Of a stretch of 64,000 nucleotides of DNA, positions 1-60,537 are shown one piece after another. The notes beneath the pieces were generated by a model that did not search any database, was not told the origin of the DNA, and saw only the letters and a program-made list of their open reading frames with translations. This DNA is from Fimicolochytrium jonesii (taxonomy: Eukaryota), in contig NW_026515692.1 in NCBI RefSeq assembly GCF_025526975.1, forward strand, positions 62,001-126,000, in the 5' to 3' direction. Every line of letters begins with the position of its first letter. Within the stretch, counting starts at the first letter, position 1. The position numbers and the translations under genes were made by a program.

Positions 1-317
1 AAAAGGCGGCATAACGAAGGAGAAAATGAAAGAGGCAAAGCGCCGCAGTGATGCGGCCTAGAGACGGGAGCGAGACAAGATGATGAAGCGACTCCAGTAC
101 TTGCGAAAGCACATGGATGATTCCTCTTCGAGTGATGATGGAGACGGTGACGGAAACGGCGGGGGAGGTGGTCCAGGGGGTTCGCCTGGTGGAGGCGGAG
201 CCGGAGCCAGTGGAGCCACCGGTGCCGGGGCAGCGGCGGCTATCATGGTGGCAGGGTAAGGTGCTGAAGTCGTATATAGTGCCCAGAAGCTGCCCCAGTA
301 TGTGTGTTCTGTATGTC

Positions 318-1690
318 TCATTCGGACGTAGTCGTCGCCGGCTGTCTATTGCTAGCGACATGACCTTCTTGAATTGCTTGAATAAATTTCGTATGTGTCT
401 CGGGAGGAAAGGGCTTTGTGAAGTAATTAGCCAGTTGTTCCTGCGTTGCGCTGTCGAGGAGTACGACGTCTTTCTTTGCCACGCCGTCGTGTAGCTTGTG
501 GTAGCGTACGTAGATGTGTTTGGAGCTTTGACTAATAGCCGTGGAGTTGGCAATCTTGCGGGCGCTTTGATTGTCAATGTGGATTGGCGTGGGGTCCTTG
601 ATGTTGCCGTATTCGTCGCCGAAGACCTTCGCGATGATCGAGCAGAGCCAGTAGACCTCGTTGTAACCAAGGGCTGCGGCGATATACTCAGCTTCCGTGG
701 AGCTGAGAGCTACACACTTCTGTTTGGTGCTTTCCCAGTAGATAAGCTGGCCTTTGAAGAAGCTGGCGATGCCCGCGGTAGATTTGCGGTTGTTGACATC
801 GTCTGCGTAGGATGCGTCTGTATAGACGCTAAGTCCAGCCTGATCTGAATGACCGGACTTGTAGGTAAGCTCGAAGGTGCAGGTACCTTTCAGGTAGCGC
901 ATGATGCGAAGTACATCATTCCAGTCGGCTTGGGTAGAAGCTGAGACTTGACGTGCGACGAAGCCTACGGCAGTTGAAATATCCCAGCGCCAGGTAATGG
1001 ATGCCCACGTGAGGGCCCCAACTGCTTCCTGGTAGAGAAGCTTGTTAGGAAAAGGGGGGCTTGCGGAGGTGGTCGGGTACGCGCAGAGACGGCGCACGGC
1101 GTAGAGACCGGGGTAGCTTTTTGTTGTCCAAATCGTTCGAGTAAACCGTCGATAGAGGTAACATTGCTGATTTTGAGTTGGTTCCCGGACGGCGAGAGCT
1201 GGTAATTGAAGACCAGACCCAGGCAGTTTTTGATGGGACCGAGATCCGTACAGTTGAAATGAGAACATAGTTCACCTTTCACTTGCTTGACGTGTAAGGG
1301 AAAGCAGCAGGCGATGAAATTGTCCACATAGATAAGGAGCATCCGGAGGGCGACCAGAGTGCGCATCGTTGTCGCGCAGCGATAGAAGACGCAAGGGCAG
1401 TTCTTTAGCGCAGTAAAGCCGAGAGAACTGAGGGTTTTGCAAAGGGTACGGTACCAGAGAAGCGGAGATTGCGTCAGACCATATAGAGCCTTGCGTAAGA
1501 GGTATACCCAGTCTGCACGCAGCTTGTGCAGATCTTCGTAGCCTTGAAATTGTTCAACATAGACGGGTCCATCGATATCGCTGCGTAAGAACGCGTTGGG
1601 GACGTTGAGTGGATGGATTTCCATACCGAGAGAGACAGCAATGGAGAGGAAAAGGCGAAGAACTGACATGGGTAGGGTTGGAGCGTAGGT
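318..1690 (-). pseudogene. Ty1/Copia reverse transcriptase + RNase H remnant (frameshifted, 5' truncated), left-arm copy
   Basis: AFLRSDIDGPVYVEQ, KALYGLTQSP..W, LLIYVDN (degenerate YVDD), YTDASYA..NRKSTAG, KQKCVALSSTEAEYIA, IHIDNQSA, SKHIYVRYH, split over two frames. Confidence 0.9.
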
Positions 1691-1746
1691 GTCGTTATAA
1701 TCAATACCCTTGGATTGACAAAAACCTTGAACTACACTGCGGCCCT

Positions 1747-3654
1747 TGTCGGGGATATCTCATCTTCACTTGTATTTCATATTATATCTCTTTACTTTTA
1801 CTTGATCTGAGACCCGGGCTGGCCACCCAAGCTCGTAAGACGCAAACGGCCCATAAGACGGTGAGACCAGCAGCCCCTCCAGCTGCACCTCCGCCAGGAC
1901 CCTCACGACCGACTACGCGCTCTACGCGCGCTTCGTCCGCAGCGTCCGCAAGCGGCTCTTCGATATCGAAAGCCCGAGTTAGAGAAGCTCTTCGATTGGC
2001 GACAGAGGTATCGACGTTGAGGACGCACAAACTCAAGCTATCGTTGCGGCTGTCGCAGCTGCTTTTGCTACTCAGCAGTGTGCTGTTACGCAAGACACCC
2101 AACGAGCCGAACGCTTCAGACTTCTTATGGACGCTTGCGAGAACAAGCTCGTCGAATACGATGGCGCCAAAGCTGCCAAAAAGACCGAAGAGTTCGTTAC
2201 ATCTCACCACAACTTTCTCGAGTCTTTCACTGTCCCGGCTGTAGCAGCTGGAACAGACGGTACTGGAGCTGCCAATGCCATACCCTTTACTATGGCAGAG
2301 TATGCTCCTACGCTCACTACCTCCCTCAAGGGTACTGCTCTTGAGTGGTACAATACGACTTACGCCGCTGGACCTCCCGCAAATTGGGCAGGTTTTGAAA
2401 CGGCTCTTGTCGCTCACTTTTATCCTCGCAATTTGCGTAATACTATTGAGCTCAAGCTCTCTGGCCTCAAGCTCGGCGACTCTCTTGAGAAATATATCAA
2501 GGAGTTTCAAGACACCAATAATGAGCTCGAAGCTGCTCATCGTCTCGATAACACCCAAGGTACAATTCCCCTTATCGATCAGATTCGATACTTCAAGGCC
2601 GGTCTTCTCAGGAATACGGTAATCAGTCATTATCTCGCTGAAGCCGTTACGAACTTCGAAGTCTCGGGCACTACCAATATCAACACCCCTATCACTCTCG
2701 ATCAAGCTATCACTGCAGCTCGTCGTGCTCATGTGGCTCACAGGTTCACTGACGGCAAGCAAGCCAATACGCCTCGTCCGATCGCCTCGGCAACAAGTGC
2801 TTGTGGCGGCGGCGGAGCCAGTCGCGGTCGAGGTAGTCGTGGCAGTGGTCGTGGCGGACGATTTGCCCTTTACACCAATTCTCGAATTACGGAATTCGAG
2901 CAAGACTTAGGTGATATGACCTTTGGGCTCAATGCCCTCAGTACGTCATACTATCCCCCTGGAGTGAGTCGTCTCACTACAGGTCAAGTTCTCTACCAAC
3001 GTCAACAGCCCTTCCGTCGACGTGGACAATGGCAAACTACTCACGTTCCTCGTCAACGTCCAATGACTCCTTGTCCCCTTTGTAACAAAATGGGACATTG
3101 GAGTGTTGAATGCTGGTCAAATCCCAAAAATTGACAGCAAGGCTCGCAAACCCAGAACCGACACGGTGGTTTTTGACAGCGCGGTCGTGGCGCTCAAACT
3201 CAGCAGCGCAGTCGCCAACCTAATCAACAACAAGGTTCAGCCAATCAGGTTGATGCTGGGTCACGCATCACGGAAATTCTCGATGACGCCGTCAACTCTG
3301 CGAATACTACAAATACTACTACAAATCAATCTTCGAGTTTTTTCCAAGGTCATTAGAGCCCCTCGGTAGCTCTGCTCGGCCTACAACATACGATCCTACC
3401 GATAAACCTGCGTTTGCACCACTGTCTGCTGGACTCTGGGTCTCTCATTGTCGCATCGGAAACAAGTTTGCTCGTGTTCTTTTCGATAGCGGCGCAACTG
3501 GGTTATTCCTTGATAAGACATTCTTCGAAAAGCACAAATTTCCCAAGAAACGTATCGAATTGAAGCAGATATGGCTGGCCGACAAAGAATCATACATGAT
3601 TCTCGAAACGTTCGTTTCGGAAAAGTTAGATCTATGGGATCTCGAATCTCAGTC
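1747..3654 (+). mobile_element. Ty3/Gypsy-type 5' fragment: LTR-like start, gag (2127-3134) and aspartic protease (about 3400-3654), cut at the palindrome centre
   Basis: Gag motifs LKGTALEWY..NWAGFETALVAHF and CCHC knuckle CPLCNKMGHWSVEC. Protease ARVLFDSGATGLFLD (GAT at 3485) is in the frame of ORF 3560. TGTCGGGGATATCTCAT at 1747 is shared with the LTR at 10376. Confidence 0.8.
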
Positions 3655-3705
3655 GGGTTCACAAAGTACTTCCTCGACTTGGGAAGTTGTTCAACTAAGA
3701 AAAGT

Positions 3706-5613
3706 GACTGAGATTCGAGATCCCATAGATCTAACTTTTCCGAAACGAACGTTTCGAGAATCATGTATGATTCTTTGTCGGCCAGCCATATCTGCTTCAA
3801 TTCGATACGTTTCTTGGGAAATTTGTGCTTTTCGAAGAATGTCTTATCAAGGAATAACCCAGTTGCGCCGCTATCGAAAAGAACACGAGCAAACTTGTTT
3901 CCGATGCGACAATGAGAGACCCAGAGTCCAGCAGACAGTGGTGCAAACGCAGGTTTATCGGTAGGATCGTATGTTGTAGGCCGAGCAGAGCTACCGAGGG
4001 GCTCTAATGACCTTGGAAAAAACTCGAAGATTGATTTGTAGTAGTATTTGTAGTATTCGCAGAGTTGACGGCGTCATCGAGAATTTCCGTGATGCGTGAC
4101 CCAGCATCAACCTGATTGGCTGAACCTTGTTGTTGATTAGGTTGGCGACTGCGCTGCTGAGTTTGAGCGCCACGACCGCGCTGTCAAAAACCACCGTGTC
4201 GGTTCTGGGTTTGCGAGCCTTGCTGTCAATTTTTGGGATTTGACCAGCATTCAACACTCCAATGTCCCATTTTGTTACAAAGGGGACAAGGAGTCATTGG
4301 ACGTTGACGAGGAACGTGAGTAGTTTGCCATTGTCCACGTCGACAAGAGGGCTGTCGACGTTGGTAGAGAACTTGACCTGTAGTGAGCCGACTCACTCCA
4401 GGGGGAAAGTATGACGTACTGAGGGCATTGAGCCCAAAGGTCATATCATCTAAGTCTTGCTTGAATTCCGTAATTCGAGAATTGGTGTAAAGGGCAAATC
4501 GTCCGCCGCGACCACCGCCACGACTACCTCAACCGCGACTGGCTCCGCGGCCGCCACAAGCACTTGTTGCCGAGGCGATCGGACGAGGCGTATTGGCTTG
4601 CTTGCCGTCAGTGAACCTGTGAGCCACATGAGCACGACGAGCTGCAGTGATAGCTTGATCGAGAGTGATAGGGGTGTTGATATTGGTAGTGCCCGAGACT
4701 TCGAAGTTCGTAACGGCTTCAGCGAGATAATGACTGATTACCGTATTCCTGAGAAGACCGGCCTTGAAGTATCGAATCTGATCGATAAGGGGAATTGTAC
4801 CTTGGGTGTTATCGAGACGATGAGCAGCTTCGAGCTCATTATTGGTGTCTTGAAACTCCTTGATATATTTCTCAAGAGAGTCGCCGAGCTTGAGGCCAGA
4901 GAGCTTGAGCTCAATAGTATTACGCAAATTGCGAGGATAAAAGTGAGCGACAAGAGCCGTTTCAAAACCTGCCCAATTTGCGGGAGGTCCAGCGGCGTAA
5001 GTCGTATTGTACCACTCAAGAGCAGTACCCTTGAGGGAGGTAGTGAGCGTAGGAGCATACTCTGCCATAGTAAAGGGTATGGCATTGGCAGCTCCAGTAC
5101 CGTCTGTTCCAGCTGCTACAGCCGGGACAGTGAAAGACTCGAGAAAGTTGTGGTGAGATGTAACGAACTCTTCGGTCTTTTTGGCAGCTTTGGCGCCATC
5201 GTATTCGACGAGCTTCTTCTCGCAAGCGTCCATAAGAAGTCTGAAGCGTTCGGCTCGTTGGGTGTCTTGCGTAACAGCACACTGCTGAGTAGCAAAAGCA
5301 GCTGCGACAGCCGCAACGATAGCTTGAGTTTGTGCGTCCTCAACGTCGATACCTCTGTCGCCAATCGAAGAGCTTCTCTAACTCGGGCTTTCGATATCGA
5401 AGAGCCGCTTGCGGACGCTGCGGACGAAGCGCGCGTAGAGCGCGTAGTCGGTCGTGAGGGTCCTGGCGGAGGTGCAGCTGGAGGGGCTGCTGGTCTCACC
5501 GTCTTATGGGCCGTTTGCGTCTTACGAGCTCGGGTGGCCAGCCCGGGTCTCAGATCAAGTAAAAGTAAAGAGATATAATATGAAATACAAGTGAAGATGA
5601 GATATCCCCGACA
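3706..5613 (-). mobile_element. Mirror copy of the Gypsy gag-protease fragment (right arm), with an extra CGA>TGA stop in gag
   Basis: Reverse complement of 1747-3654. ORF 4529..5233 ends at GASRG* where the left arm reads GASRGR. Confidence 0.8.
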
Positions 5614-5669
5614 AGGGCCGCAGTGTAGTTCAAGGTTTTTGTCAATCCAAGGGTATTGATTATAACGAC

Positions 5670-7042
5670 ACCTACGCTTCAACCCTACCCATGTCAGTTC
5701 TTCGCCTTTTCCTCTCCATTGCTGTCTCTCTCGGTATGGAAATCCATCCAGTCAACGTCCCCAACGCGTTCTTACGCAGCGATATCGATGGACCCGTCTA
5801 CGTTGAACAATTTCAAGGCTACGAAGATCTGCACAAGCTGCGTGCAGACTGGGTATACCTCTTACGCAAGGCTCTATATGGTCTGACGCAATCTCCGCTT
5901 CTCTGGTACCGTACCCTTTGCAAAACCCTCAGTTCTCTCGGCTTTACTGCGCTAAAGAACTGCCCTTGCGTCTTCTATCGCTGCGCGACAACAATGCGCA
6001 CTCTGGTCGCCCTCCGGATGCTCCTTATCTATGTGGACAATTTCATCGCCTGCTGCTTTCCCTTACACGTCAAGCAAGTGAAAGGTGAACTATGTTCTCA
6101 TTTCAACTGTACGGATCTCGGTCCCATCAAAAACTGCCTGGGTCTGGTCTTCAATTACCAGCTCTCGCCGTCCGGGAACCAACTCAAAATCAGCAATGTT
6201 ACCTCTATCGACGGTTTACTCGAACGATTTGGACAACAAAAAGCTACCCCGGTCTCTACGCCGTGCGCCGTCTCTGCGCGTACCCGACCACCTCCGCAAG
6301 CCCCCCTTTTCCTAACAAGCTTCTCTACCAGGAAGCAGTTGGGGCCCTCACGTGGGCATCCATTACCTGGCGCTGGGATATTTCAACTGCCGTAGGCTTC
6401 GTCGCACGTCAAGTCTCAGCTTCTACCCAAGCCGACTGGAATGATGTACTTCGCATCATGCGCTACCTGAAAGGTACATGCACCTTCGAGCTTACCTACA
6501 AGTCCGGTCATTCAGATCAGGCTGGACTTAGCGTCTATACAGACGCATCCTACGCAGACGATGTCAACAACCGCAAATCTACCGTGGGCATCGCCAGCTT
6601 CTTCAAAGGCCAGCTTATCTACTGGGAAAGCACCAAACAGAAGTGCGTAGCTCTCAGCTCCACGGAAGCTGAGTATATCGCCGCAGCCCTCGGTTACAAC
6701 GAGGTCTACTGGCTCCGCTCGGACATCGCGGAGGTCTTCGGCGACGAATACGGCAACATCAAGGACCCCACGCCAATCCACATTGACAATCAAAGCGCCC
6801 GCGAGATTGCCAACTCCACGGCTATTACTCAACGCTCCAAACACATCGACGTACGCTACCACAAGCTACGCGACGGCGTGGCAAAGAAAGACGTCGTACT
6901 CCTCGACAGCGCAACGCAGGAACAACTGGCTAATTACTTCACAAAGCCCTTTCCTCCCAAGACACATACGAAATTTATTCAAGCAATTCAAGAAGGTTGT
7001 GTCGCTAGCAATAGACAGCCGGCGACGACTACGTCCGAATGA
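5670..7042 (+). pseudogene. Ty1/Copia RT + RNase H remnant, right-arm copy
   Basis: ORFs 5691..6395 and 6092..7042 carry the same Copia motifs. RSKHIDVRYH is intact here. Confidence 0.9.
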
Positions 7043-7594
7043 GACATACAGAACACCCATACTGGGGCGGCTTCTGGGCACTATATACCACTTCAGCATC
7101 TTACCCTGCCACCATGATAGCCGCCGCTGCCCCGGCACCGGGGGCTCCACTGGCTCCGGCTCCGCCTCCACCAGGCGAACCCCCTAGACCACCTCCCCCG
7201 CCGTTTCCGTCACCGTCTCCATCATCACTCGAAGACGAATCATCCATGTGCTTTCGCAAGTACTGGAGTCGCTTCATCATCTTGTCTTGCTCCCGTCTCT
7301 AGGCCGCATCATTGCGGCGCCTTGCCTCTTTCATTTTCTCCTTCGTTATGCCGCCTTTTCCTTTATATCGCGACTCCAAGACTGCCTTACATCCCAGGTA
7401 GTCTGCCTCCTCCATCAATGTCTCGAACAACCCCTTCTTTCGCTTCGATCGATCCAGTTTCGCCTTCGTAAACGCCAGGTGCTTGGCAAGGTTCTCATGG
7501 TTATCCTTCCGGTACCTCAACGTCGCCACCTCCGTCGCCAATCGAAGAGCTTCCCTCACTTGGGCTTTCGACATCGAAGAGTCGCTTGTCCCCG

Positions 7595-11916: not shown

Positions 11917-12156
11917 GGCGCCGAAGGCTCAGGCAATGGTTTCCATTCCAGTTCCGTTGGCTGTAAGGTAAGCCAGGAAAAGCGCAAGGCAGCGTCGACA
12001 CTTTCCTGCAGCGGACTGCCCGCAAGGTCAAGGAAACTGTGTGTTGTATACTGTATATGTACTGTATATGCCAAGGAAGAAGGAAGAGCAGAATGCGTTT
12101 TGGACAGCGCCTCGATGAATTTTGACTTGGAGCGGATGGCAATGGCATCCACGCGT

Positions 12157-12353
12157 TGTGGTGCGGTGAGGAAACAGGTCATATTGCCGCAACCCTAACT
12201 CCCTGCGGTAACCCTACCCCACTAGCTAGTTTATATCCCCAGTCACCTGACTTGTTGTCGTATTTTTCTACTTGTACATATCCGCGCGCGACTGCGCCGG
12301 CTTTCTCTTTTCTTCTTTACCCATAATACATCTATATATCCCTGCCTACCTCA
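12157..12353 (+). repeat. 5' LTR
   Basis: TGTGGTGCGGTGAGG...CCTACCTCA, duplicated at 20618-20814. Confidence 0.97.
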
Positions 12354-12356
12354 TTC

Positions 12357-12367
12357 TGGTGGAGAAT
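12357..12367 (+). promoter_or_regulatory. Primer-binding site, probably for tRNA-Ala
   Basis: TGGTGGAGAAT, 3 nt after the LTR, is complementary to the ...ATTCTCCACCA 3' end typical of eukaryotic tRNA-Ala. Confidence 0.7.
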
Positions 12368-12780
12368 TGGGAAGTAGGTGTTTTGGGGACACCCACACCG
12401 TCGCTACAACCGCAACAAAGAAGAGTATCCGTTCTTCCGTTTCGTCCATACTTGGTGTACCGTTTTGAGCATTCCACGCCATTCCCGCCACTTTCCGCGT
12501 GGCTATAGCGATTTCCTTAGTTACCGGCGGCGATCCCCGGCATCCATCCATCCATCAGTTCCCGACAACAATCCACCAATCCGACGACGGCTTCCTAGGC
12601 ATCATCGTCCCGGCTATCCATTCCCGCTGAGTATCCATCGATTGGACCACTCTCCGCAACGATCCATTCATACACGTCGTCGTCCCGTGAGAAAAGCCCA
12701 GCTTGAGGTGCAGCCTGGATTTGGGCACTCGCAACAACACAGAGACCGTACTTTTCGTAACCGTCCGTCGAGAATATCCA

Positions 12781-14547
12781 ATGGCGTTCCCTGGCACTCC
12801 CGCCTTCTTCGGAAGCAACGATTGGCGTGACACTCGTCCTCTTTTTAGCGACACCCAAGAAGACAATGAACTCAGCGAGCACGACAGCAGCGACGGCCAC
12901 TCCGCTTGCGCCTGCGCTACGGAGTCCGCGCACGCGCGCATCGACGCCTTCCTTGCCCGCTCACAAATCGAGCATGCGGGTGTAAAGATCGGATTGTATG
13001 GCGCCATTTCGCATGTCGATGCAGAAGTCCTTGTCGGCTTGCTTCAATTCTGTACCGATATGGGCATTAGCTTCGATTCAGTATGTGAAGGCTTAGCGGA
13101 CGGTACCCTTGATCGAGTCTACGTCCAATCCCTCAAGTTCGCACTCGACGCTCATCCCGCGCAATTCGCCCTCCGTGAATTTGCGAACATCGTCAAAACT
13201 GCCACTGTTTGGCGTCTCTCGCGTGATCGCTACCATGCCGGCCCGCATGCGGCGACTCGTCCTCAGTCGGCGCCCTCAAACAACCCTACTTCTCGTCCTC
13301 CGCATCGCGCTGGTGCTATACCTTCGGCACCTGTAGCCGCTGCCCCTCTAGATGGCGCCGTTAGTCAACAGGATCTCGTCACGTTGATGTTCCGCACCCT
13401 CGAACAACTTCAGCGCACCCCGCAGACAACCAATTCACAAGCGTCACTCAACAAAGGCCTGCCCAAATACGAAGGCAATAAATATCATCAGGACTCGTCA
13501 CGAATCTTGCAATGGCTCCGCACCTTCGACAAGCTCGCTGACTCTTGCGGCGTTCAAGAAAAGGACCGCTTCCGTTGGCTGTCTAAGGCGATTGATGACA
13601 AAGACCAGCTCACTTGGACATGGTTTACGTCGTATCAAGGCAACACCCAAGATTGGAACCACGTTCGTACCGATATGGTTTTAGAATGCGCCTCGTCGGT
13701 CGACCGCGACCCGTCGCTCCTCGCCGACCGCATCTCAACCTTCCAGCGCGCTCCGGGGCAAACCATTCGTCAGTACGGCAGCCTATTCTTGTCATTAGTT
13801 TACGAACTCGAATACCTCAATAAACACATTGCAACGGTCGCTACGGAACTCACCCGGACCCAAATTGCTCGAGCTTTTATCCGCGGTCTAGGCGATAGTG
13901 CTACGCTGGCGCACGCGCTTGGTTTGCCGAACTTCAACCAGCTTCCAATCGAGGAGTTGATTCGGGCTTGCGCCGATTACGCCGAACGCAAGGACGCATA
14001 CTCAGCGCCAAACGTGCCGTATCAGGCGTCGACTCGTCCATCGTACCCCGCACCGACGGCTACGAACATCCCGGGCACCAACAACCAGTATCCCTCAAAT
14101 GCGCGGAACCAGCGTCCTTCGGTACCTCGCGCACAGCCCGCTCCACGGGTCTTGCAACCAGCGCCGCAAGCTTCGGCCCCGACGACTTCGGCGGCTCCGG
14201 CAGCGTCTGGTCCGGATGACTTGACTGCCCGCATGCGCGACCTTTCCATCAAGACCGCCGGTAATAGCAACCAGTATCCTCCGGGCCTTCCCAGCGCGCG
14301 CCCTCAACGCCGCGACCGCGCCTGCTTTCGTGGCGGACAATCCGGCCACATCTTCAGGGATTGTCAATCCACCACGAAACTGGATACCTGGCATGGGTAC
14401 CAGTTAGCGGCCGCCTTCTACCCCAAAGAAGTCCATGAGTACGACGAAGATCATACCGAATATTACTCGATGGTCCTCCGCGATGTGGGCCACTACTACG
14501 CGGACCCGGAAGACCAGGATTTTCCCAATGGGAGCTCGGAGCAGTAG
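12781..14547 (+). CDS. gag: Gag of the Gypsy element
   Basis: Long ORF (12703..14547; first ATG 12781) with capsid-like LPKYEG..ILQWLRTF..TWF..DWNHVR..FQRAPGQTIRQY and a degenerate knuckle CFRGGQSGHIFRDC. Confidence 0.85.
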   Translation: MAFPGTPAFFGSNDWRDTRPLFSDTQEDNELSEHDSSDGHSACACATESAHARIDAFLARSQIEHAGVKIGLYGAISHVDAEVLVGLLQFCTDMGISFDSVCEGLADGTLDRVYVQSLKFALDAHPAQFALREFANIVKTATVWRLSRDRYHAGPHAATRPQSAPSNNPTSRPPHRAGAIPSAPVAAAPLDGAVSQQDLVTLMFRTLEQLQRTPQTTNSQASLNKGLPKYEGNKYHQDSSRILQWLRTFDKLADSCGVQEKDRFRWLSKAIDDKDQLTWTWFTSYQGNTQDWNHVRTDMVLECASSVDRDPSLLADRISTFQRAPGQTIRQYGSLFLSLVYELEYLNKHIATVATELTRTQIARAFIRGLGDSATLAHALGLPNFNQLPIEELIRACADYAERKDAYSAPNVPYQASTRPSYPAPTATNIPGTNNQYPSNARNQRPSVPRAQPAPRVLQPAPQASAPTTSAAPAASGPDDLTARMRDLSIKTAGNSNQYPPGLPSARPQRRDRACFRGGQSGHIFRDCQSTTKLDTWHGYQLAAAFYPKEVHEYDEDHTEYYSMVLRDVGHYYADPEDQDFPNGSSEQ

Positions 14548-14563
14548 GGGACTCCGACCTCCC
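14517..14563 (+). promoter_or_regulatory. Putative -1 programmed ribosomal frameshift signal (G_GAU_UUU plus stem-loop)
   Basis: GGATTTT at 14517-14523 in gag phase, 6-nt spacer, then hairpin GGGAG-C-TCGGAG / CTCCGA-C-CTCCC (14530-14563). The -1 frame is open into pol. Confidence 0.8.
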
Positions 14564-17500
14564 GCAATACGATCCTCCGGATCCCCGCCCAATGTCGTTG
14601 GCGATTTTTATGGCTGAGAAGAGAAAAGCGGATGAGCTCCCGTCCGAACCGGCTTCGAAACGACTGAACACTTCGACGCACCCGATGCCCTTCCCGGCAC
14701 GGCCCCCGCTCAAGACTCGTCCCTCGGTGACGCCCGCCCGCCCGCCGGGTGTCCTTCCTTCACGTTACACTGTCGGTCAACAACAGAGTACGCCGATGCC
14801 GGCGCGGTTTCCCCCGGTACCTCCCCCGCCGACCAGATTACCTCCTACACCCATTGTCGAGTTACCTCGCGTTACTCCACCGCCTAAATCGGTACGCTTC
14901 AACACTCCCACCAGTACACCGATGGAGATCGATCCCCGGGGGACATCCGGTCCAACCCGACCTGCCGCACCGCACAAGCCGCCGTCACCGATTGTTCCCA
15001 CCCGCAAGTCCCCCTCACCGCCGCCCCGCGCCGATTCCCCGGTCGGTGATGACGATCCGCGCATTCCTGCTCCCATCCGTGCGCTGATTGACAAGAAACA
15101 ATTCGATATCGTCAACTTCCTCAACGAGACTGAAGTGCGCGGACTTACTCTCGCTGACCTACTCCAATGGAGCCCGGCCTTACGCGAACGCCTCCGCGAC
15201 GCGATGAAACTCGTCCCCAAGGTGCGCCGCGCGGCTCTATGTTTTCGCAAACCTCTACTTGGTGCCTGGCACCCTGACACTGAGCCTCCGGACCATGACA
15301 ACGACAACACCCTCGACGGACGTCTCGACTTTCACCTCAAAGCTCTCTCCAAGGTTGATGTTTCCGCAACCGGCACCCATTACATGAACGCGCTCATCCA
15401 GAATTCGCCCGCGAAGTGCCTCTTCGACGGTGGTTGCTGCTTGATCGCCATCAGCGCCGAGGTCCGCAAGCGCCACCAATGGACTCTCACCAAGGTTCCT
15501 CCTACCTTTCATTTGCGCCAAGTTGACGGTTCCGCTCCTAAGCTCGAGGGAGAGGTCCACAACCTCGTCGTCACCATCGAGGGTCATCAAGTTCCGATCA
15601 ACGTCCTTTCCATCGTCGGAATGGACGCCGAGTGCTTACTAGGTCGTCCATTTCTGGAGATGGTAATGGGCATCACCCATTGGAAGAATTCCATTTACCA
15701 TTTCAAGATTCACGGCTCCTGGATCCTCGTCCAAGGTAGCACTGGAGAGACGCGCGAAGTCCGTACCCTCACGGCGGCCGAGGAACGTGAATGGGATCAG
15801 CACGGTCGTACACCCCTTCTCGATATCACTCCTCCGGCGCCACGCACCCGTTCCCAAACCAGGCAAGCCAACATCTCCTCATTGATCGCTGACGGCTTCA
15901 AGGTGGAGATCGATCACACGGGCGATCAGACGCTCGCTGACATTCGTAGTGGCGCTCTCTTCGGCATACTACAAACTGAGCCCTGTCCACCCCTACCCGG
16001 CGACGACTATTCCCCGGATTCCGATCAGATGGATTTCCGCATCAACCTGCTACGCACCTTCGCGAATGCCCCGGTCCCCAACCAGATCACCGTCCCGGCT
16101 TTCCGACAACTTAAACAGGCTTTGCAACTCGAGCCCAAACTGCCCGAATTCACTCTCCCCGCGACACATGAGTTCCGCTTCCTCACGTGGAATGTTAATT
16201 CTTTGCGCAACCTCGTCCGCAAGGGGGTCGACCTGGGCTCCCTCTTCAACCGCCTGAACCTCGATATCGTTTGTTTCCAAGAAATCAAGTGTTCGCGTTC
16301 TTCATTACCGCTGTCGCTCACGGACATTCCGGGTTACCGCTCCTTTTGGTCGCTCAGTGAGACCAAACAAGGTGTCAAAGGCGTTGGGACGTACGTCCGC
16401 GCTGAGTTAGCCGCTACGCTACGCAAGGTCACAACCGACGCTGATCTACCGATCGACCCGGACGCCGATTGTGAGGGCCGTGTTCTCGCCCTCGACTTCG
16501 ACCAATGCACCGTGATCAACGTCTATTATCCGAACGGCGGGATGGGCGACGCTGATCAACAGGCTCATGCGATTACTTCCAAGATCGCCCTCCATCAGAC
16601 TCTGCTTCAGATCGCCACCGCGGCCCGGACGAGCGGACGACATGTCATATTCGCCGGCGATTTCAACGTTGCGCATACCGATTCGGATGTTCACCCCAAC
16701 CTGAAACACCAGATGCACACCGGTGTGACCCCAGCGGAGCGACAACTGCTCACGCATTTGACCGATCACGATTTCGTCGACACTTACACTACCTGCCACC
16801 CTGACGCGCCGGCCGGTGATGGCTACACCACATGGTGGTTCTCCAAGCACGCGCGCGAACGGAACATTGGGCTTTGACTCGATTATATCTTCCTCGGTCT
16901 GCCGGATGCGGATTATACTCCTCATATCACTTGCGATGTCCTGCACGAACTCCACGGCTCCGATCACGTTCCGCTGTTATTCACCCTACGCACCATAGTC
17001 GAAGAAACGATCCCCGAGTATCACGCCAAGATGTCGTCGTTAGTCAACGCTTCCCCGGAGTACGTTTCGCCCCTAGCCCCCCGCGACTCACCTACGCTCG
17101 TCCGCCAAGTCGCCGGCATCACTATCGAGTCGATCACTGCGCGATCCATACGCCCGACACCCATGCGCCCACTCAAGGTCGGCACCCGCACCTTCCAGGT
17201 TGCCGAAGATTTACCACCCGCGGTCGTTACCGAGTTAGAACAACTTCTTCACGAATACCACGACGAGTTCTGCAATAAAGACGAAGTGCCCCGCACCTTC
17301 AAGAACGTGCCTGAAATGAATCCGGTCTTGAAGCCCGACCATACCGGTCAACGCAAACTCCCTTTCCCGAAAACGCGCGCGCACAGCCCCAAGGATACCA
17401 AGGTGTTAAACGAATGGTGCGACCGGATGCTCCGGTGGGACAAGATCGAGCTGGTTACCGATCCCCCAGTGGTCGCTGCGCTGCCCATCGTCGTCTACAA

Positions 17501-20351
17501 GAATGGTGTAGCGCGGGTATGTGCGCACTTCAAGGTCAACAGCGAGATCCAAGCTTTCCGGTACCCCATCATTCCCGCTCACCTTACCTTGCAACGTGTC
17601 GCCGCGGCCGACCGCATCACGGCCTTCGACTTCCGCCTCGGCTATCATCAGTCCCCACTCCATGTCGCCGCTCGTTACCTCACCACCATCTTACTTCCGC
17701 GCGGGATTTATCAGTACAAAGTCGGACCCATGGGCTTCATCGACACGGGCGAATGGTTCTCCTTCCAAATCGACACCATGATCGGCGAAGTCAAGTTACT
17801 CAAGGACCACACCCACCTCTTTCGCGACGACGCTTACCTGTGCGAAGACAATTTAACAGACCACTCCAGACCCACACACATTGACCGCCTCCGCGCATTC
17901 TTGGAAACCGCCCGCACTCACAACGCTTCAATCTCCGAGCACAAATGTCTCTTCGCCGCTGGCCGGGTCCCCGCGCTGGGCAAACTCGTCGGCAATCGAC
18001 AAATCGCGACCACCGCCAGTAAACTTGACGTCGTCGCCCAGTGGCCTACCCCACGCCATCAAGAAGACCTCCGTTCCTTCCGCGGTTTCATCGGCTTCAT
18101 CTCGGACGGGCTTCCTGACTACGGTCTCTTGATGGCACCTTTGAATACGCTCCTCCGCAAAGAATTTGCCGATAAACGCAAGTTCCGCGCCGAATGGCTC
18201 CGCTCCCAAGAGTACTGTCGCGCCTTTTTAGATGTCAAGCAGCTCGCATCCGACAGCTTCGTTCTTCACGCATACAACCCTAATCGGCCATTGATCATTG
18301 CCACCGACGGGTCCGGCACCGGCGCCGGGGTTGTGGTCGCTCATTGTCTCGATCCCGCCGATGACTACCGGGTTACGGCCGACACTCGCTACGTTCCATG
18401 TGAATTCTTCTCCCGCACATGGACCGGAGCCGAGCTTCACTACGAACAACCCGAACGAGAATTGGCTGCCATCATTTTCGGGTTGCTGAAAGCGGAAGTC
18501 CACCTCACCTTCGAATTCTACATTATCACGGATCATCAAGCTTGGGTCAAGTGTCAGAACGCGCATACCAAGAATCGACGCATCCTCAAATGGTTCAACT
18601 ACATCAACGCACTCCCTACCGCTGACGGTTGGCCGAAATATATCTTCCGCCGCACGGCCGCCCACATCGACGCCGACGCTCTCTCCCGTCGACCCGCAGC
18701 CCCGAGCGAACTTCTCACTTCCACAATCGACGATGAGCTGGATCTGACGCATCCGTGCCCGCTGAACGACATTCACATCAGCGCCAACATCAACCTCCTC
18801 ACGCTCGGTTGGGAACCGTACGACTCCATTCACGCTTACCTCCGGGGAGATCACGCATTCCTCGGTACCGACCCGGCACATGCTACGCGCATCCGCTCAT
18901 TGGCTCACCGCTTCTTCATCTACGACGGTCGCCTCTATCGCCGCAGCCTTCCTCGCATGCCACCCCGACTGGTCCCCCGTTTAGAGGATGTCGCAGCCAT
19001 CAAGCGTACCTTCCATGGCGACCATCCGGGCTCCTTTGGCCATCTCGGCGTCTTGACAGCGTATCAGATGATTGCCTTACGCTACTTCTGGTTCAACTTG
19101 TACAGCGACATTGAAGAGTGGGTGCGCGCCTGTCCAGTATGTCAGCTCCGTCAATTACGCCGCCCCAAGCAATACCAGCTGTTTCGCATCATTCCCCCGG
19201 CGCTCCTCTTCACGTTGTTAGGTCTCGACTGCGTCACCTACCCGAACGCCCAGATCGGTCGGTCTTCCCAAGTCTACATCGGCTGCCTCTGCGTCTTTGA
19301 TTACCCGTCCGGCTACGGTTGGGCCTACCCGCTCAAGGCGTTCGACGGCCTCAACATCGTTCTCGCGCTCCGCGATTGGTGCGCTCGGTATGGTGTCCCA
19401 GTTCACATCGTGGTTGACAACGCGCAGTATTTTATTGAAGGCGCATTCGCGGCATGGGCGTCCAGGAAATCGATCGAGCTCGTTCAAACGTCGACAATGC
19501 ACCCCATGGGGAATGGTCGGGCTGAGAAGTTTGTCCAGGACATCACTCGTGTTCTGTCTCACATCGTATTGCAACGGAACTTAGAAGCCAAGGTCGACCC
19601 CCCGGACCTGACGATTTGGCCCGACTGCCTCGATTCGGCGATGTACACTTACCTGAATCACGTCGCCCGGACCACAGCCGTTTCCCCCTACAACGTTGTA
19701 TTCGGCCAGCATTGCCACGTTCCCGGACATGCGACCACCGGCCTGCTCGACCCGGAAGCGCTCGACACCTTGCTCACTGACGAATACCGCGCCGACCGCG
19801 ACGTCCTCCGCACATGGGCTCTTCAGACCGCTAACCGCAACCGCATCCACGAAACCGAGGCCATCAACGCTACCCGCAAACCCCCGAGAACATATGCGGT
19901 CGGTGATTGGGTGTACGTTCATCGCAACGAGCTGGACACGACCTACGTCTCGACCCGCAAGCTCGTCAACCGTTGGACCGGTCCATATCAGATTTCCAAG
20001 GCTTACCCCGGTGGCGCCTATCTGCTCCTAGATGAACACGGGACCCCTGCTTTCAACTCGCGCCCTGTCAACCATCTCCGCTTAGTTCCCGCTCGAGTAC
20101 GCCCTGCGTGGTCCGCCCCCGCGTTTACCGCCGACCTCCCACTCCCGCTCCATGACGACCAATTGGATCCCCCTCCCAACGCTACGACTAAAGAGATCAA
20201 CAATGACTCTCTCTCCGTCCCTGAACCCATCCCGGACGACCTCCAAGTTTCCCTCGCCGTCCTTTCCGCGGCGCTTCCCTCAGACGACATCTCCTCATAT
20301 CCTTGCGAACGCCCCGTCGATCCCGCCCATCCTGTTCGCCGCAGGTGTTGA
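14520..20351 (+). CDS. pol: Pol polyprotein: protease, exonuclease III/AP endonuclease, RT, RNase H, integrase; one in-frame TGA at 16875-16877
   Basis: ORFs 14592..16877 and 17031..20351 are in the same frame, and 16878-17030 is open. PR: KCLFDGG..CLLGRPFL. RT: FDFRLGYHQ, PMGF, FRDD. RH: IATDGS..ERELAAI..TDHQ. INT: H..GHLG..CPVCQ, LGLD, VDNA, GRAE. Confidence 0.92.
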
Positions 20352-20600
20352 CTCTTCCTCTTTCGACTTCCCGCCTTTCTCCCGTTCCGCTTTTTTCTCG
20401 TTTCGGTTTTTTCGCTTTCGCTTCATCAACTCGAACGATCGCTCGCCTCCGTCACCACGCGCCCGCTAATGCCCCCGGGACGGTCCGTCTATACCGCGTC
20501 AGTGCCTCTGCGTCGATCAACGTCCTTTTCTTCTTCTTTTCGGTTTCGGATCACTTGTGTTGCGTCTTGTTTCGGTTTCTCGTGACTCGCTTGGCACTGT

Positions 20601-20617
20601 GGAGGCAGGGGGAGGAA
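20601..20617 (+). promoter_or_regulatory. Polypurine tract
   Basis: GGAGGCAGGGGGAGGAA immediately before the 3' LTR. Confidence 0.9.
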
Positions 20618-20814
20618 TGTGGTGCGGTGAGGAAACAGGTCATATTGCCGCAACCCTAACTCCCTGCGGTAACCCTACCCCACTAGCTAGTTTATATCCC
20701 CAGTCACATGACTTGTTGTCGTATTTTTCTACTTGTACATATCCGCGCGCGACTGCGCCGGCTTTCTCTTTTCTTCTTTACCCATAATACATCTATATAT
20801 CCCTGCCTACCTCA
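20618..20814 (+). repeat. 3' LTR
   Basis: Copy of 12157-12353, differing C/A at LTR position 91. Confidence 0.97.
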
Positions 20815-21638
20815 GCGTGTCAACGGCATATCCGGAGCATCCGGACGAGACGAGACGGCAGCCTCACCGCACGACATCGGCGTTGGCCCCATTACGCCTC
20901 ATCGCCCCTCAGCCACTCAACGGGCACCGCGAGCATCCAGCTCATATGCTCTCTCGCCCCGCTCGCTCATCCGGAGCAACTCCGACAGTGGACTTCCATA
21001 CCCGATTTCAAAAACCGGGAATAACGCGAGGACGGTGTTCTTAAAGGTTTGGTAACTTTGCTGTGCTGATACATTCACCTTCGTGTTGGTTGGAATCCAA
21101 CCGCCTTAAAGGGCGCTTTCTTCATTTGTCCAGCCATCGCTATCATGCCGAGCGTGAAGTCCATCCTCGAAACAGCGCCCTCTAGCGCGACAAGCGTGCA
21201 TCGGGGATGTCCTAATGGACGTAAATGCTCGTGCCATTTAAAAAAAGGAGTTCTGAAGGCAAAAGAAATGTTCATGGGAATATACCAGTAAACAATGTAA
21301 CGCATCTAAATGGCACGCAACGTAGTGTGCTTCCTTGATATTTTGAAAGATGTATATGGATCAGTTTGTCATGGAACTATGGTACATGGGAACAGGGAAA
21401 ATACGACGTGTTATTTCCATCTGAGTACTTGCAGCCCAAAAAAGTGGCGCGCCAAGGTGAGCCGATGCTGTGCTGTGTTCGTTCTATATCCAGCTGCCAA
21501 TGAGTCAAGAGCGTTTAGGCGGACGCTCGTAGGATTCCTGGCTGCGAGGGCTCTCTCTAGCTTCGCGCCGATCGTGTTCAAATACATAATTGGGAGGAGC
21601 CCGGCTGCTATCCCTCTTTCGCTTGCAGCAATGCGGCT

Positions 21639-31261: not shown

Positions 31262-33375
31262 TCACTTTACAATCACAGTGAATTCCTGAGACCCTCCCTT
31301 GTCGGAAGTGACTTTTACTTTGCGCGGGTTAATGTTGGTCGCTATGCGGACTTGCCAGGCATTCTTTGCGACGACTACCGGGGCAGGTGTTGTATAAGGG
31401 AGGTCGAATTTGGGCGATACGCAAGCATCATCGGAACACGAGGGATACACAGTGAGCTTGGCGCCTTCTTCGGAGCCCGTGCCCGAGATCCGCAACGACG
31501 CCTTCCCGTCGTAAGTGCCGATATCGATGGTAATCTTATCGTTAGGCTGAGGGTCGGAGGTCTTTCTTTCGCTGAACTTGCTGATAAAGCCTCCGGCGTA
31601 CTTGGTCGCCACAGCATAAGTGTAATCGCGTTTGCCAAATCGGCCGAAAACCGTAACCTGTGCCGCCGTGGTCTCGGTACTCAGAGTCTCGAAAGGGTCT
31701 CCAATCGTTGGACCCGTGCTGCCCTCGTATTCCTGAATGAGATACGATTTGGCATTGGCGTCTTTGTTCCAGGAAATCGTAACGATCGCAGCTCCACCCA
31801 CGACTTTCAGACCCGTTGGGACGGGGACGGGAGCAGCGAGGGTGTAAATGAACTGTGCCTTGGTGAACTCGTCGGAGTCGGAAAAGGCGTAGGCGACATT
31901 GAGTTCGACACGCCCGCCGGGGGCGATCGCAGGAGCTGATTGCGCTAGTTCGATAGGACCGGTATATACCTTGGCGGAGGCGCTAAAGATCGGTTTTGGT
32001 GATTCGGTTTCGTAGATCGGTGTGTTCAACGTGTATTTGATGATTCCGGCGTTCGAAGAAGTCAACTTCACAAACTGAGCCGTCTGGCCTGTGGCTGGCT
32101 CGGCGGCGAGCTTCAGGGGGCCGCGAAGAGTGAATAGGTCTGAAGTCCTCGTAGTCGGATTATCAGTCGGCCCGTGCTCAACCACAGCGCGAATCTGGAC
32201 CGACGTGGCGTCGATAATATTTGGTCCCACGACCGTTATCTGAGTTTGTGAGGCGGGAGCAGGGACATAGGCGCCGACAATGTCGCTACGGACCGCCTTG
32301 GAAGCTTTAGGCTGAAGGACCAGAACATCGTAGCCGGCCAGTGGATTTAATCCAGCCGGCATCGTGGGCTCTTTCCAAGAAACCGTGACAACGTTCTTGA
32401 TTGCCGGGGTTTCACCCGTGGTTTCCACGGTAGTCCAGTATTTGCTGGCAGGAGGCGCGAATTCTTGAGGTCCCGGAGGACAACCACCCATGCCAGGTCC
32501 ACCAGTTTCCCCTAATTCATGGATCGTCAGTCCTCGAGGGAGGGCGTCGGGTGTCACATCCAGCCAGCCCATCACGCGAGCTCCTCCTCCTCTGTAAGCA
32601 ATCTGTGCCGCTTCAACGTCATCAAAAGTGAAGGTGGCTACGAATTGATTATTGTCTGCAAGAAAGTATAGGTGGTCGTTTACTTTGTCTTCATTGCGAT
32701 TTTACAGCACTGGGGGATGACTAAAAATCACGTACCCGGGTTAATGACGAGGGTAGAAGTATAGCCGTCGTGGGTTGTAGGTTGGGGAGCCCGAATGTCC
32801 CGTTTTGTTACGAAAGGGCGGAGATCGGGATTTACGATTCGCACTTCGTAACAATCTTTACATTTGTCTTTGTTGAACGGGTCGACGTACCCTTTCAAGG
32901 TAAGGATTTTGCTGCCATCATACACGACGCTGGTTATTTTAGCGTCGAGTGTCCGAACCGAAGCCTCCTTGATGTTGTCGAAATACAGATCGATGATGTC
33001 TCCGCCAACAATATCAGGGGTGACTTTGATGTCGGTCCCTGCTCCCCAACAGTAACCGCCCGGGTGGTTAATGTCGAATGCATTGGCTCCTCCGCTGACA
33101 ACAGCCTTCACGGATGCGACGACTGTGAGGACGGCGTCAGCGGCTAACCCGGAACGGCTAACCATACGGCTAACCCGGACCTCAGCGATTTTGCCTTGCT
33201 GTGCCCAGTAAGCTTCGACTGTCAAGAAATCGCGATCTGGGAAAATCGATATGCCATTCGGGGGCATGGGAAGGCAGTCGCCACCATCCTGGCATGATAG
33301 GGGGGCGGCGATGGCTACAGCCAAGATAGTAGCCCACACGAGCAGAGACTGTACTACTGCCGAGCCAGAAAACAT
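31262..33375 (-). CDS. Secreted protein with fibronectin type III-like and chitobiase/hexosaminidase C-terminal-like repeats; bacterial-like N-terminal domain; intron 32656-32735
   Basis: Signal peptide MFSGSAVVQSLLVWATILAVAIA. Removing the GT..AG intron joins ORFs 32728..33375 and 31262..32575 in frame. Fn3-like VTVSWKEP..GYDV and VTISWNKD..SYLI; IIKYTLNT..VYTGPI. Confidence 0.8.
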
Positions 33376-33619
33376 GGCGGGCGTGCAGATTGTCGTAAAA
33401 TGTGGGCCGTCTCAGGTTTCTGAGAAGAGAGAGCACTGAGATTTCCTCCTCTGCACGACTACTGAACTTCAGTATCGGCGTCAGGAAATCTCTCGGTGTT
33501 TATAAGTCTTTTGGTTGTCCGCGCTGGGAGACGTTTGGATCCATTCCATTCAGTGAGCGGAAAATTCGCGGCTTACCTACTGTAAGGGTCGCGCTGTCGA
33601 TTTTTGTTGCAAACTTCTC

Positions 33620-33977
33620 ATTTTCGATTTTCCGCCGCTTACCTACAAGGAGGCCCATGTCGGATTCGTCTGTAGGGAGGGCAAGATCAATGGGATCCGG
33701 CGGCCCTCCCTGAACAACGATCCCTGAAGGCAGCACTTATACGCCTCTGCCTATATAGCACCCTGCAATCCGTCCCTGAGGGTGCGTATAAATAGAGGAT
33801 TTTCGATTTTCCGCCGCTTACCTACAAGGAGGCCCATGTCGGATTCGTCTGTAGGGAGGGCAAGATCAATGGGATCCGGCGGCCCTCCCTGAACAACGAT
33901 CCCTGAAGGCAGCACTTATACGCCTCTGCCTATATAGCACTCTGCAATCCGTCCCTGAGGGTGCGTATAAATAGAGG
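33620..33977. repeat. 179-bp tandem duplication in the divergent promoter, each unit carrying TATA-like boxes
   Basis: 33620-33798 and 33799-33977 match except for one substitution seen; each contains TATATAG and TATAAATA. Confidence 0.95.
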
Positions 33978-34037
33978 CGGCAACAGCAGTCATGTTTTTT
34001 CGGCATGTATTGCTAACACTGAGGACACTGCTCGGCC

Positions 34038-39783: not shown

Positions 39784-40911
39784 ACTTTTATGTCCTGTAT
39801 TGTCTGCTGAATATTTCATATCTTTGGCATGCTTGTTTGAGTCATCATGAAAATAACGTTGCAAGGATGGCACCAGATCGGCTGTGCAGGAGGCGGTGAT
39901 CCCGACCGCAAGAACCAATTCCATCTCCGATGTGAATTGAGTTTTCCCTACCTACAACACCTCGCCGCAACGACGCCGCGTCGTCAAGGGGGTCTGAGCA
40001 TCGCAGCAGATATGTGCGGAGTTAGAGGCCGATGCGGGAAATTTCACTTGAATTTGGTAGTCGATCTAACAGAATATAACCCAACGGACCCAGTGACATA
40101 TCCGTCTCCTACTACGAGGCGGTAGATGCCACTGTGGATTGGAAGTCCAGGAATTTCGCATAGCAATTGGTGGTTTGAATGTCCCAGCGGACGCTGACGT
40201 TGGAGGCCGCCTAAAGAGCTCCATCGGGCGCTGCAAACGAGGAGAATGTCGGAAAATCAGCGGTTGGAATCCGGTATGTTGCCACGACCGTTTGGCGGTT
40301 CGAAATGGATGGCCGTGCCAGAAGGGCTATACGGCCACCGCATAGATCGATAGACGCCCAAGAATGCTCCCGACACGGATGCTGAGGTGGTTGACTGTGC
40401 TGTTTGGTGTATGTATAACCGCAAGGGCGCTTTACTTCTAGGGAGCTGGATCCGGACTTACGACCTCATGTAACAGTATGTTGGGCCGACGGACGAAGCT
40501 GCGTTTGGGTGGTGTTGGAGACGCACCAGCCGCGCGTGGAAATCGACAGCGCGATCATCCGCTATACGTGTTCGTGTCCGCCACATGCGCGAGACCCTCG
40601 CAATCGAGTCTTTTTCAGTTCATATTCGAGACATGAAGCTCATCCAGAAGCCAGTCATCAAGTTACCGTTCTTTCGCACCTCCGAAAATTGCAAGTAAGA
40701 GGAAAAATGTTCCATTGAAATTTCATATACTGTACTATAAAGAATTGAAGATCTGATCCCAAATACGCCGTACACAAAGTAATGTCCAAAGAGTGGCAAT
40801 GTTCCCAAAACGAAAACGAAAGTCGAATGATGGAAAAGGAATAAAAGTGGTCGGGAAGGACGAGACAATTGCGAAACAGAAGGCAGGTCATCGCAAGTAT
40901 CCGAGCAAAGC

Positions 40912-59730: not shown

Positions 59731-60537
59731 GGAGTGGGTAAGGAGTGGGTCTCTGAGCGTTGGGCTTCGATTTCAAGCTCGTATGGTCTTTTCTCACTTT
59801 CTTTCTTCACTTTGAGCAGCGCAACTTTAAGTTGAGTGAACCGCATACCGCAAAAATACATGGGACTCACGATTCCTTGCCATGTCAGCACCTTCAACGA
59901 CTACCGCTCTCGTCAATAGATGGCGACCGCAGCTGCCAGACCTTGTCTTGCGCCGTATATGCGATTTCCTCCCCACCGCCGACGTCAACGCCGCATGAGC
60001 AAACAACCGGTTGTTGGGGTGAGGTGCAGGGGGTGTGTTGCCCTTTTGAAGTTGGAGGGTGGTGGAGGGTTGTGGGGCGGCGGCGCGGATCCCGTTTCGG
60101 CCGTCCGTGATGTGCCATATTTGGGAGCAGCGAGGAGCGGCGGGCTGCTGCTGATGGGAGGCGGGATGTGCAGCGGGTTGATAGCATTGTTCCTGGGTTG
60201 AGCGAGCTTGGGAAGACTGCCAAGGAGGATTAACTCGGACACCAATGGCGGTACTGTAGCGCATCACCTAACATATTGCAGATTCTTCCACACCCTCTCT
60301 CACCGCCATTGCCAAGATCTTTTTTGAACTACACACCTACAGCACACCTGTCAGCTGCAGTAGTGTTCCAGAGTGGAACCCCAACTTTCTGCTCTGCTTT
60401 TGTTTACAAGGTGACTCCAAAACCAGTCTTCTCATTCTTGCCCCGGAAGTACATCCTTACGCCAACCACCACCCGTCTTGACCCAGTATATCCTTTCGCC
60501 GACCACTACCAGGTAACAACCGCAATCCTTCACCATT

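Follow-up and report, generated by a model that had tools for sequence, protein, structure and literature searches.

Ty3/Gypsy elements (Metaviridae; Ty3 reverse transcriptase, PDB 4ol8) share long terminal repeats (LTRs), a primer-binding site (PBS), a polypurine tract (PPT), gag, and a pol region in which protease (PR), reverse transcriptase (RT), RNase H (RH) and integrase (IN) follow in this order. To our knowledge, LTR-type RTs have no proofreading nuclease, and a retroelement nuclease of the endonuclease/exonuclease/phosphatase (EEP) fold is taken as the hallmark of long interspersed nuclear elements (LINEs) such as L1, where the EEP endonuclease (L1 EN) lies upstream of RT in one open reading frame (ORF). 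Here we report the analysis of a stretch of 64,000 nucleotides from the chytrid Fimicolochytrium jonesii (contig NW_026515692.1, positions 62,001 to 126,000; called the window below), in which a Ty3/Gypsy element at 12157-20814 encodes, between PR and RT, a 275-aa EEP domain attributable to the cellular Xth/ExoIII class. Members of its clade add this domain and an altered RT motif, F/Y-R-D-D, to the common Gypsy plan and form a deep, separate branch. The clade is apparently an undescribed old Gypsy branch with a borrowed DNA-repair nuclease beside its RT.

Accessory enzymes known in LTR elements include dUTPase, DEDDy exonuclease, AlkB and helicase (PMC5408684, PMC9289625, PMC6338049, PMC5718144). 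The dUTPase of rotifer Juno, Vesta and TelKA, of basidiomycete elements and of planarian giants is a captured nucleotide-quality enzyme in the same slot between PR and RT (PMC5408684, PMC6431247), although here the slot is filled by an EEP-fold nuclease, not a pyrophosphatase. A 3'-5' exonuclease has likewise been captured by LTR elements of rotifers, as an ORF3 for which RNA end processing was proposed (PMC5408684); however, it has the DEDDy fold, forms an ORF of its own and is reported to show no clear departure from neutrality, whereas the EEP domain is fused within pol and is under purifying selection. Dam-like methylases of the PF05869 family occur in the pol of DIRS elements (PMC3783388) and in a subclade of siblings of the present element, where, in contrast to DIRS, the methylase lies upstream of RT in a Gypsy pol with PR and IN; it is absent from the window copy. 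With the cellular Xth/ExoIII enzymes (APE2/Apn2, APE1, Mth212) the domain shares the fold, the catalytic residues and a TIGR00633 score above cut-off, but it has no PIP or zf-GRF tail, lies within a retroelement polyprotein and, like APE2, has lost a pocket aromatic residue. From L1 it differs by its distant sequence and by the presence of a DDE integrase and LTRs.

A literature search retrieved no report of an Xth/APE domain in an LTR pol, with Repbase, GyDB, subscription journals and Figure S1 of PMC3248453 (on complex elements; it may bear on novelty) outside its scope, and none is mentioned in the available parts of PMC3248453 (including two text supplements), PMC9926174 and PMC11105155. 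An earlier note, made from the letters of the window alone, had proposed an undescribed lineage, and within the scope of that search the proposal holds.

The Xth-class domain and the clade that carries it

All ExoIII/APE1 motifs listed in the earlier note are present at 16173-16994. The HMMER check it had proposed gave matches of the window EEP domain to Pfam Exo_endo_phos (E 8.5e-19) and to the NCBIfam xth model TIGR00633 (153 bits, cut-off 99); TIGR00195 scored 138 bits, below its cut-off of 183, and the LINE-type model PF14529 failed (20.9 bits, cut-off 27.4). The TIGR00633 cut-off was passed by 15 of the 19 related proteins scanned, the four below it including two fragments (P0079, P0144) and P0130 from another lineage. 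The 57 PDB matches at E <=1e-3 included Mth212, Mm3148, APE1, ExoA, Apn2, ExoIII and Crc, and neither L1 EN nor any other LINE endonuclease was among them. A profile of 11 clade rows scored 224 bits with Mth212, ~167 with APE1, 163 with APE2 (6wcd), 121 with E. coli ExoIII and 53 with L1 EN. The AlphaFold model built from the same 11-row alignment (pLDDT 83, against 34 for a single-sequence fold) has a DNase I-like four-layer fold, with TM ~0.8 to Mth212/APE1 and a Foldseek E of 6e-20 to Mth212. The G+C content at third codon positions is 0.67 in the EEP domain and 0.64-0.73 in the rest of pol. The model scores, PDB matches and fold support the placement of the domain in the cellular Xth/ExoIII class rather than among LINE (APE-type) endonucleases, as the earlier note had argued.

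To find protein relatives, 1.84 billion representatives were scanned by HMMER with a PR-EEP-RT-RH query, and the best 150 matches were examined. Among these, P0038-P0042 combine EEP and RT in one polyprotein, and P0056, P0144, P0158 and P0163 are partial clade polyproteins. Annotated fragments came from two Spizellomycetales chytrids, namely F. jonesii itself (an EEP domain, P0005, 54-55% identical, and a protease region, P0043) and Gaertneriomyces semiglobifer (P0079). A metagenome scan returned ten loci, seven of them clade members in five distinct families (L004 repeats L003, and L007 repeats L006; L001 encodes the P0040 cluster and L002 encodes P0038), and the remaining three were an unrelated EEP ORF (L008), a short weak match (L009) and a LINE-like piece (L010). 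At least eight elements carry EEP and RT in one polyprotein, with EEP identities across the clade of 23-53%. Two scans of viral contigs gave no locus, and a word-based search for long proteins with EEP found only three prokaryotic Xth-PolA fusions. The 12 matches of a clade-alignment search were two known members, the window protein, two fungal Apn2 proteins and seven prokaryotic fusions.

The EEP tree was built from 46 of 81 rows, leaving out near-copies (P0186-P0188, P0036), partial rows (P0144, P0109) and long-branch rows (P0130, P0171). All 12 clade rows fell on one side (98/91, starred), divided into a group of the window domain, P0005 and P0079, a group of P0039, P0042 and P0158, and a Dam-bearing group. 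In the RT-RH tree of 34 rows, the eight EEP-bearing elements, together with four fragments too short to score, also fell on one side (100/100), on a deep branch apart from other Gypsy rows, and the clade was split in the same way as in the EEP tree. The sister clade consists of five elements with an intact PR-RT span, all five without EEP, plus one fragment. Because the two trees agree and the sister clade lacks the domain, EEP was most simply gained once and then inherited along with RT. The sister elements (P0045, P0048, P0050, P0058, P0060, P0063) are deep-branching and apparently without a name, and they share a pre-protease motif and the D-G-G protease site with the EEP clade.

Identities of EEP and RT correlate (rho 0.86 over 28 non-independent pairs), and over the eight elements mean identity was 0.36 for EEP, 0.44 for RT, 0.38 for IN and 0.21 for the linker. 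Between L002 and L003, the EEP domains have a synonymous difference (pS) of 0.79, which is saturated, and a nonsynonymous divergence (dN) of 0.14, close to that of PR (0.135) and IN (0.175). These values support purifying selection on EEP and a stable capture; with siblings carrying the domain, congruent trees and low dN, the one-off insertion that would have undone the earlier note's proposal is ruled out. The phylogeny that the note had called for places the clade next to eukaryotic APE2/Apn2-like proteins and one unnamed protein, in a join (90/94, not starred) that is unresolved with respect to P0007. The tree, in which no named APE1 row was included, leans towards kinship on the APE2/Apn2 side rather than with APE1. 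A candidate donor family is formed by short eukaryotic Xth proteins near fungal Apn2 in the tree (P0121, P0128, P0129, P0140, P0149, P0176, P0178, P0184), which have putatively PIP-box-like tails.

One subclade carries a further enzyme, which the earlier note did not see. A Dam-like N6-adenine methylase (PF05869; DLFA and NPPW motifs) directly follows EEP in P0038, P0040, L003, L005 and L006, and partly in P0163; L001-L005 encode EEP, Dam, RT, RH and IN in a single ORF. The Dam domain is under purifying selection (L002/L003 dN 0.09), and its bearers have an insertion in the loop after the column of APE1 F266. No Dam match was found in the window element, P0039, P0041, P0042, P0056 and P0158, all of which keep EEP. 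The Dam-bearing pols and the extra ORFs that follow pol in two families are:

L001 2817-9272, Dam-bearing pol
L002 4310-11476, Dam-bearing pol
L003 2568-9800, Dam-bearing pol
L005 2354-9736, Dam-bearing pol
L006 3307-6030, Dam-bearing pol
L002 12154-14184, extra ORF after pol
L003 10984-12837, extra ORF after pol
L004 6006-7859, extra ORF after pol

The extra ORF is 29% identical between families. Besides a C-terminal domain that is unexplained, it has a weak match to the PHD finger (Pfam E 0.002; PDB 1wee E 8e-5). A TET/JBP-like reading of this ORF, suggested by motifs, was rejected, with no Pfam or PDB support.

Structure and condition of the window copy

The features of the element, all on the + strand, are as follows:

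12153..12156, +, left target-site duplication (TSD) GCGT, 4 bp
12157..12353, +, 5' LTR, 197 bp, TG...CA, one mismatch to the 3' LTR
12357..12367, +, PBS TGGTGGAGAAT, a single match in the window (0.03 expected)
12781..14547, +, gag ORF, 588 aa, weakly similar to sibling gags
14323-14364, +, CCHC knuckle of gag, with Gly in place of its second Cys
14517..14523, +, likely -1 frameshift heptamer GGATTTT in the gag/pol overlap
15387..15659, +, aspartic protease (LFDGG), PF13975 E 4e-4, below the curated cut-off, conserved in siblings
16173..16994, +, predicted EEP nuclease domain of the Xth/ExoIII class, 275 aa, in the pol frame between PR and RT
16875..16877, +, premature TGA within the EEP domain, at a column where the 12 other clade rows that reach it all have Arg
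17304..17996, +, RT, RVT_1 E 8.7e-8, best PDB match Ty3 RT
17820-17831, +, RT active-site motif FRDD
18264..18626, +, RH, RT_RNaseH E 9.7e-15
19011..20021, +, IN with HHCC zinc domain, DDE core and GPY/F-SH3-like tail, Integrase_H2C2 E 3.7e-12, SH3_Tf2-1 weak
20601..20617, +, PPT
20618..20814, +, 3' LTR, followed by TSD GCGT at 20815-20818

The element is complete with LTRs, TSD, PBS and PPT, and its LTR sequence matches nothing else within the window. The Pfam and NCBIfam models give the domain order PR, Exo_endo_phos, RT, RH, integrase zinc domain and SH3-like tail; the integrase core matched the NCBIfam IS481 model (E 1.2e-7) and the siblings, and the RT-RH region matched Ty3 RT best in the PDB (E 1e-27, next match 1e-11). 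With TG..CA LTRs, TSD, PBS, PPT, the PR-RT-RH-IN order and the RT type all agreeing, the earlier note was right to call it a genuine Ty3/Gypsy element with an integrase. The PBS fits the 3' end of what we presume, from tRNA identity rules, to be tRNA-Ala, and its 11-mer recurs in six of seven sibling loci. With a 4-bp TSD and a presumed tRNA-Ala primer, the element may be tied to the Ylt1 branch of Gypsy (Ylt1, Tse3, Tmt1).

The pol frame is -1 relative to the overlapping 588-aa gag, in which a Pfam scan found no match. All six sibling junctions examined likewise have GGATTTT at the gag end and pol in the -1 frame; a hairpin 3' of the heptamer did not stand out from shuffles (z -1.13).

The insertion is recent, as the two LTRs differ at 1 of 197 positions. 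The EEP domain does lie in the pol frame, as the earlier note had stated, but the frame is not open: the TGA, given there as a bracketed residue and not called a stop, splits pol into ORFs of 812 and 1157 aa. It occupies the column of APE1 R281 and precedes the equivalents of D283, D308 and H309 and all of RT, RH and IN. Programmed read-through was rejected, since the column is Arg in the 12 other clade rows. The gag knuckles of siblings are intact, unlike that of the window copy. With the TGA at 16875 in the assembled sequence and the Cys-to-Gly change, the copy as read is broken and not autonomous, which the earlier note had missed along with the altered RT motif. It is a young but broken copy belonging to an old Ty3/Gypsy clade.

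Active site and candidate roles of the nuclease

Reading through the stop, the window domain has the equivalents of the catalytic residues N68, E96, Y171, N174, D210, N212, D283, D308 and H309 (APE1 numbering), and these are kept in every clade row covering them; the D70 equivalent is Asn, as in prokaryotic Xth. The pocket is altered. In the window, the equivalents of F266 and W280 are Thr and Leu, respectively, in a column numbering verified on APE1 chains. In the F266 column, every one of the 13 scorable clade rows has T, A or C, against an aromatic residue in 50 of the 56 other cellular rows. The W280 column holds F, M or L in all 13 clade rows, so that the clade has no APE1-type F266/W280 abasic-site pocket. 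Replacement of F266 by Ala in APE1 raises exonuclease activity ~20-fold in the burst and ~50-fold at steady state, and APE2, which has no such pocket, prefers exonuclease substrates (PMC5785985; see also PMC6122073).

The RT has also changed. The x of YxDD is Arg (F/Y-R-D-D) in 10 of 126 RT rows, which are all ten clade rows, and this change falls on the same branch as the gain of EEP. In HIV, the residue at this x position (M184) influences how the primer is placed and how faithfully RT copies.

We favour, with a probability of roughly 0.55, a nuclease that enters the particle with RT and, while cDNA is being made, trims 3' ends that are mispaired, non-templated or blocked. Gag-pol would arise by -1 frameshifting at GGATTTT, so that the particle would receive nuclease and RT in equal numbers. 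Its opened, APE2-like pocket would allow mispaired, non-templated or blocked 3' nucleotides to be removed, which would let RT continue through primer extension and strand transfers. The substrate would be the cDNA of the element itself, and the role that of a 3'-5' exonuclease or 3'-end cleaner, gained once, probably along the branch that also saw the change in the RT motif. For its pol, the window copy would depend on another copy, because the TGA removes three catalytic residues and everything downstream. Of the four functions offered in the earlier note, the sequences favour 3'-exonuclease or end cleaning and disfavour abasic-site repair, since not one of the 13 members has kept the pocket aromatic.

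Several points weigh against this role. The W280 column still has an aromatic, Phe, in eight of 13 clade rows; the six of 56 cellular rows with a small residue in the F266 column are all on the APE2/Apn2 side, and the clade may just have received this residue with the domain of an APE2-like donor. The Y128 equivalent is lost in the chytrid sub-branch (window, P0079). An opened pocket would be compatible with nicking or with cutting at abasic (AP) sites, and IN needs cDNA ends that an active exonuclease could degrade, so the exonuclease would require restraint. The coincidence of the RT change and the EEP gain has no statistical weight because both are one event on one branch, and groups B and C have EEP yet an ordinary YxDD. 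The near-identical pairs L003/L004 and L006/L007 have too few changes for a selection test, and activity, expression and packaging are predictions. A bolder form of the favoured role is a proofreading RT, in which a remodelled R-D-D LTR-type RT and a fused APE2-like 3'-5' exonuclease would edit nascent cDNA, with Gypsy Xth domains recruited to three places in pol and one subclade adding a 6mA methylase and a PHD-finger ORF; we put it forward tentatively, as doubtful in this full form.

The nuclease might instead act at or after integration, where it would clean 3' ends at the 4-nt gaps or protect the pre-integration complex from autointegration. This would use the same exonuclease-type chemistry, the nuclease is part of the same polyprotein as IN, and host APE1 in the SET complex helps HIV to avoid autointegration (PMC2644782). 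It nevertheless seems rather unlikely, as such gaps are normally filled by host repair, the sister clade transposes without EEP, and EEP adjoins RT, not IN, in this clade.

We also regard as unlikely, and rank slightly lower, a role in the repair of damaged cDNA, in which the domain would cut at AP sites or handle uracil and so fill the slot and role of dUTPase. The attraction of this reading lies in the dUTPases that LTR elements of rotifers, basidiomycetes and planarians carry between PR and RT (PMC5408684, PMC6431247) and in the best PDB match, Mth212, which is titled a DNA uridine endonuclease. The rank of Mth212 says little on substrate, because stand-alone eukaryotic proteins such as P0128 also match Mth212-type enzymes first; none of the 13 rows retains the pocket aromatic (APE1 F266, Mth212 W205), and cutting of single-stranded or hybrid intermediates would presumably destroy the cDNA.

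A LINE-like nicking endonuclease, opening target or template DNA for priming or site choice, is improbable. The same fold did become a nickase in non-LTR elements, the pocket is remodelled, and the Dam-bearing subclade has its loop insertion after the F266 column; however, IN, PBS, PPT, TG..CA LTRs and a 4-bp TSD indicate ordinary LTR priming and integration, and the domain is far from L1 EN (53 against 224 bits). More improbable still is that EEP and the methylase directly following it work as a mark-and-cut pair directed at competing DNA or at silencing by the host, since the six members that keep EEP without a Dam match make EEP independent of the methylase. That the domain is a piece of a nested LINE, a neutral passenger or a chimera of the assembly, as the stop inside the window EEP might suggest, is refuted by the Xth score above and the PF14529 score below cut-off, the shared slot in elements of 23-53% identity, the agreement of the trees, purifying selection and a third-position G+C content like that of the rest of pol.

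Other Xth-bearing lineages and the significance of the clade

Eight other Gypsy polyproteins among the best 150 carry Xth-class domains, upstream of PR or RT in P0090, P0113, P0131, P0143, P0146 and P0171 and after RH in P0124 and P0130. P0146 adds a SET domain, P0131 PhoH and P0130 an N6/N4 methylase. Their RTs fall outside the clade and have an ordinary YxDD. An approximately unbiased (AU) test on six of these polyproteins and the clade did not reject one EEP origin (p 0.25), so both repeated capture and exchange of EEP between elements are conceivable. Fusions of prokaryotic Xth with DNA polymerase I or ligase domains (P0002-P0004, P0192-P0198) are a natural precedent for an Xth-polymerase fusion.

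Elsewhere in the window, the element sits directly 3' of an intron-containing Sec61/SecY gene. Positions 1-7359 form a 3654-bp inverted repeat (99% complementary, 51 bp between arms) holding a Copia RT and debris of Gypsy gag and protease, either a foldback or an assembly artefact. Large ORFs at 31265-44773 include, on either strand, pieces that resemble multicopper oxidases (PF07732 at 36457-39246), together with related inverted segments, and a cluster of short tandem repeats with units of 21, 62 and 41 bp lies at 60536-61238.

A deep Gypsy clade that keeps a cellular Xth domain beside its RT across ~70% sequence divergence breaks the rule that EEP means LINE, and annotation pipelines equating Exo_endo_phos plus RT with LINE would misfile these elements. 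The intact siblings make the nuclease accessible to a simple protein assay, and if it does proofread, the RT-EEP pair would be of interest as a higher-fidelity RT. The clade is a natural system for asking whether 3'-end editing limits the replication or the mutation rate of retroelements.

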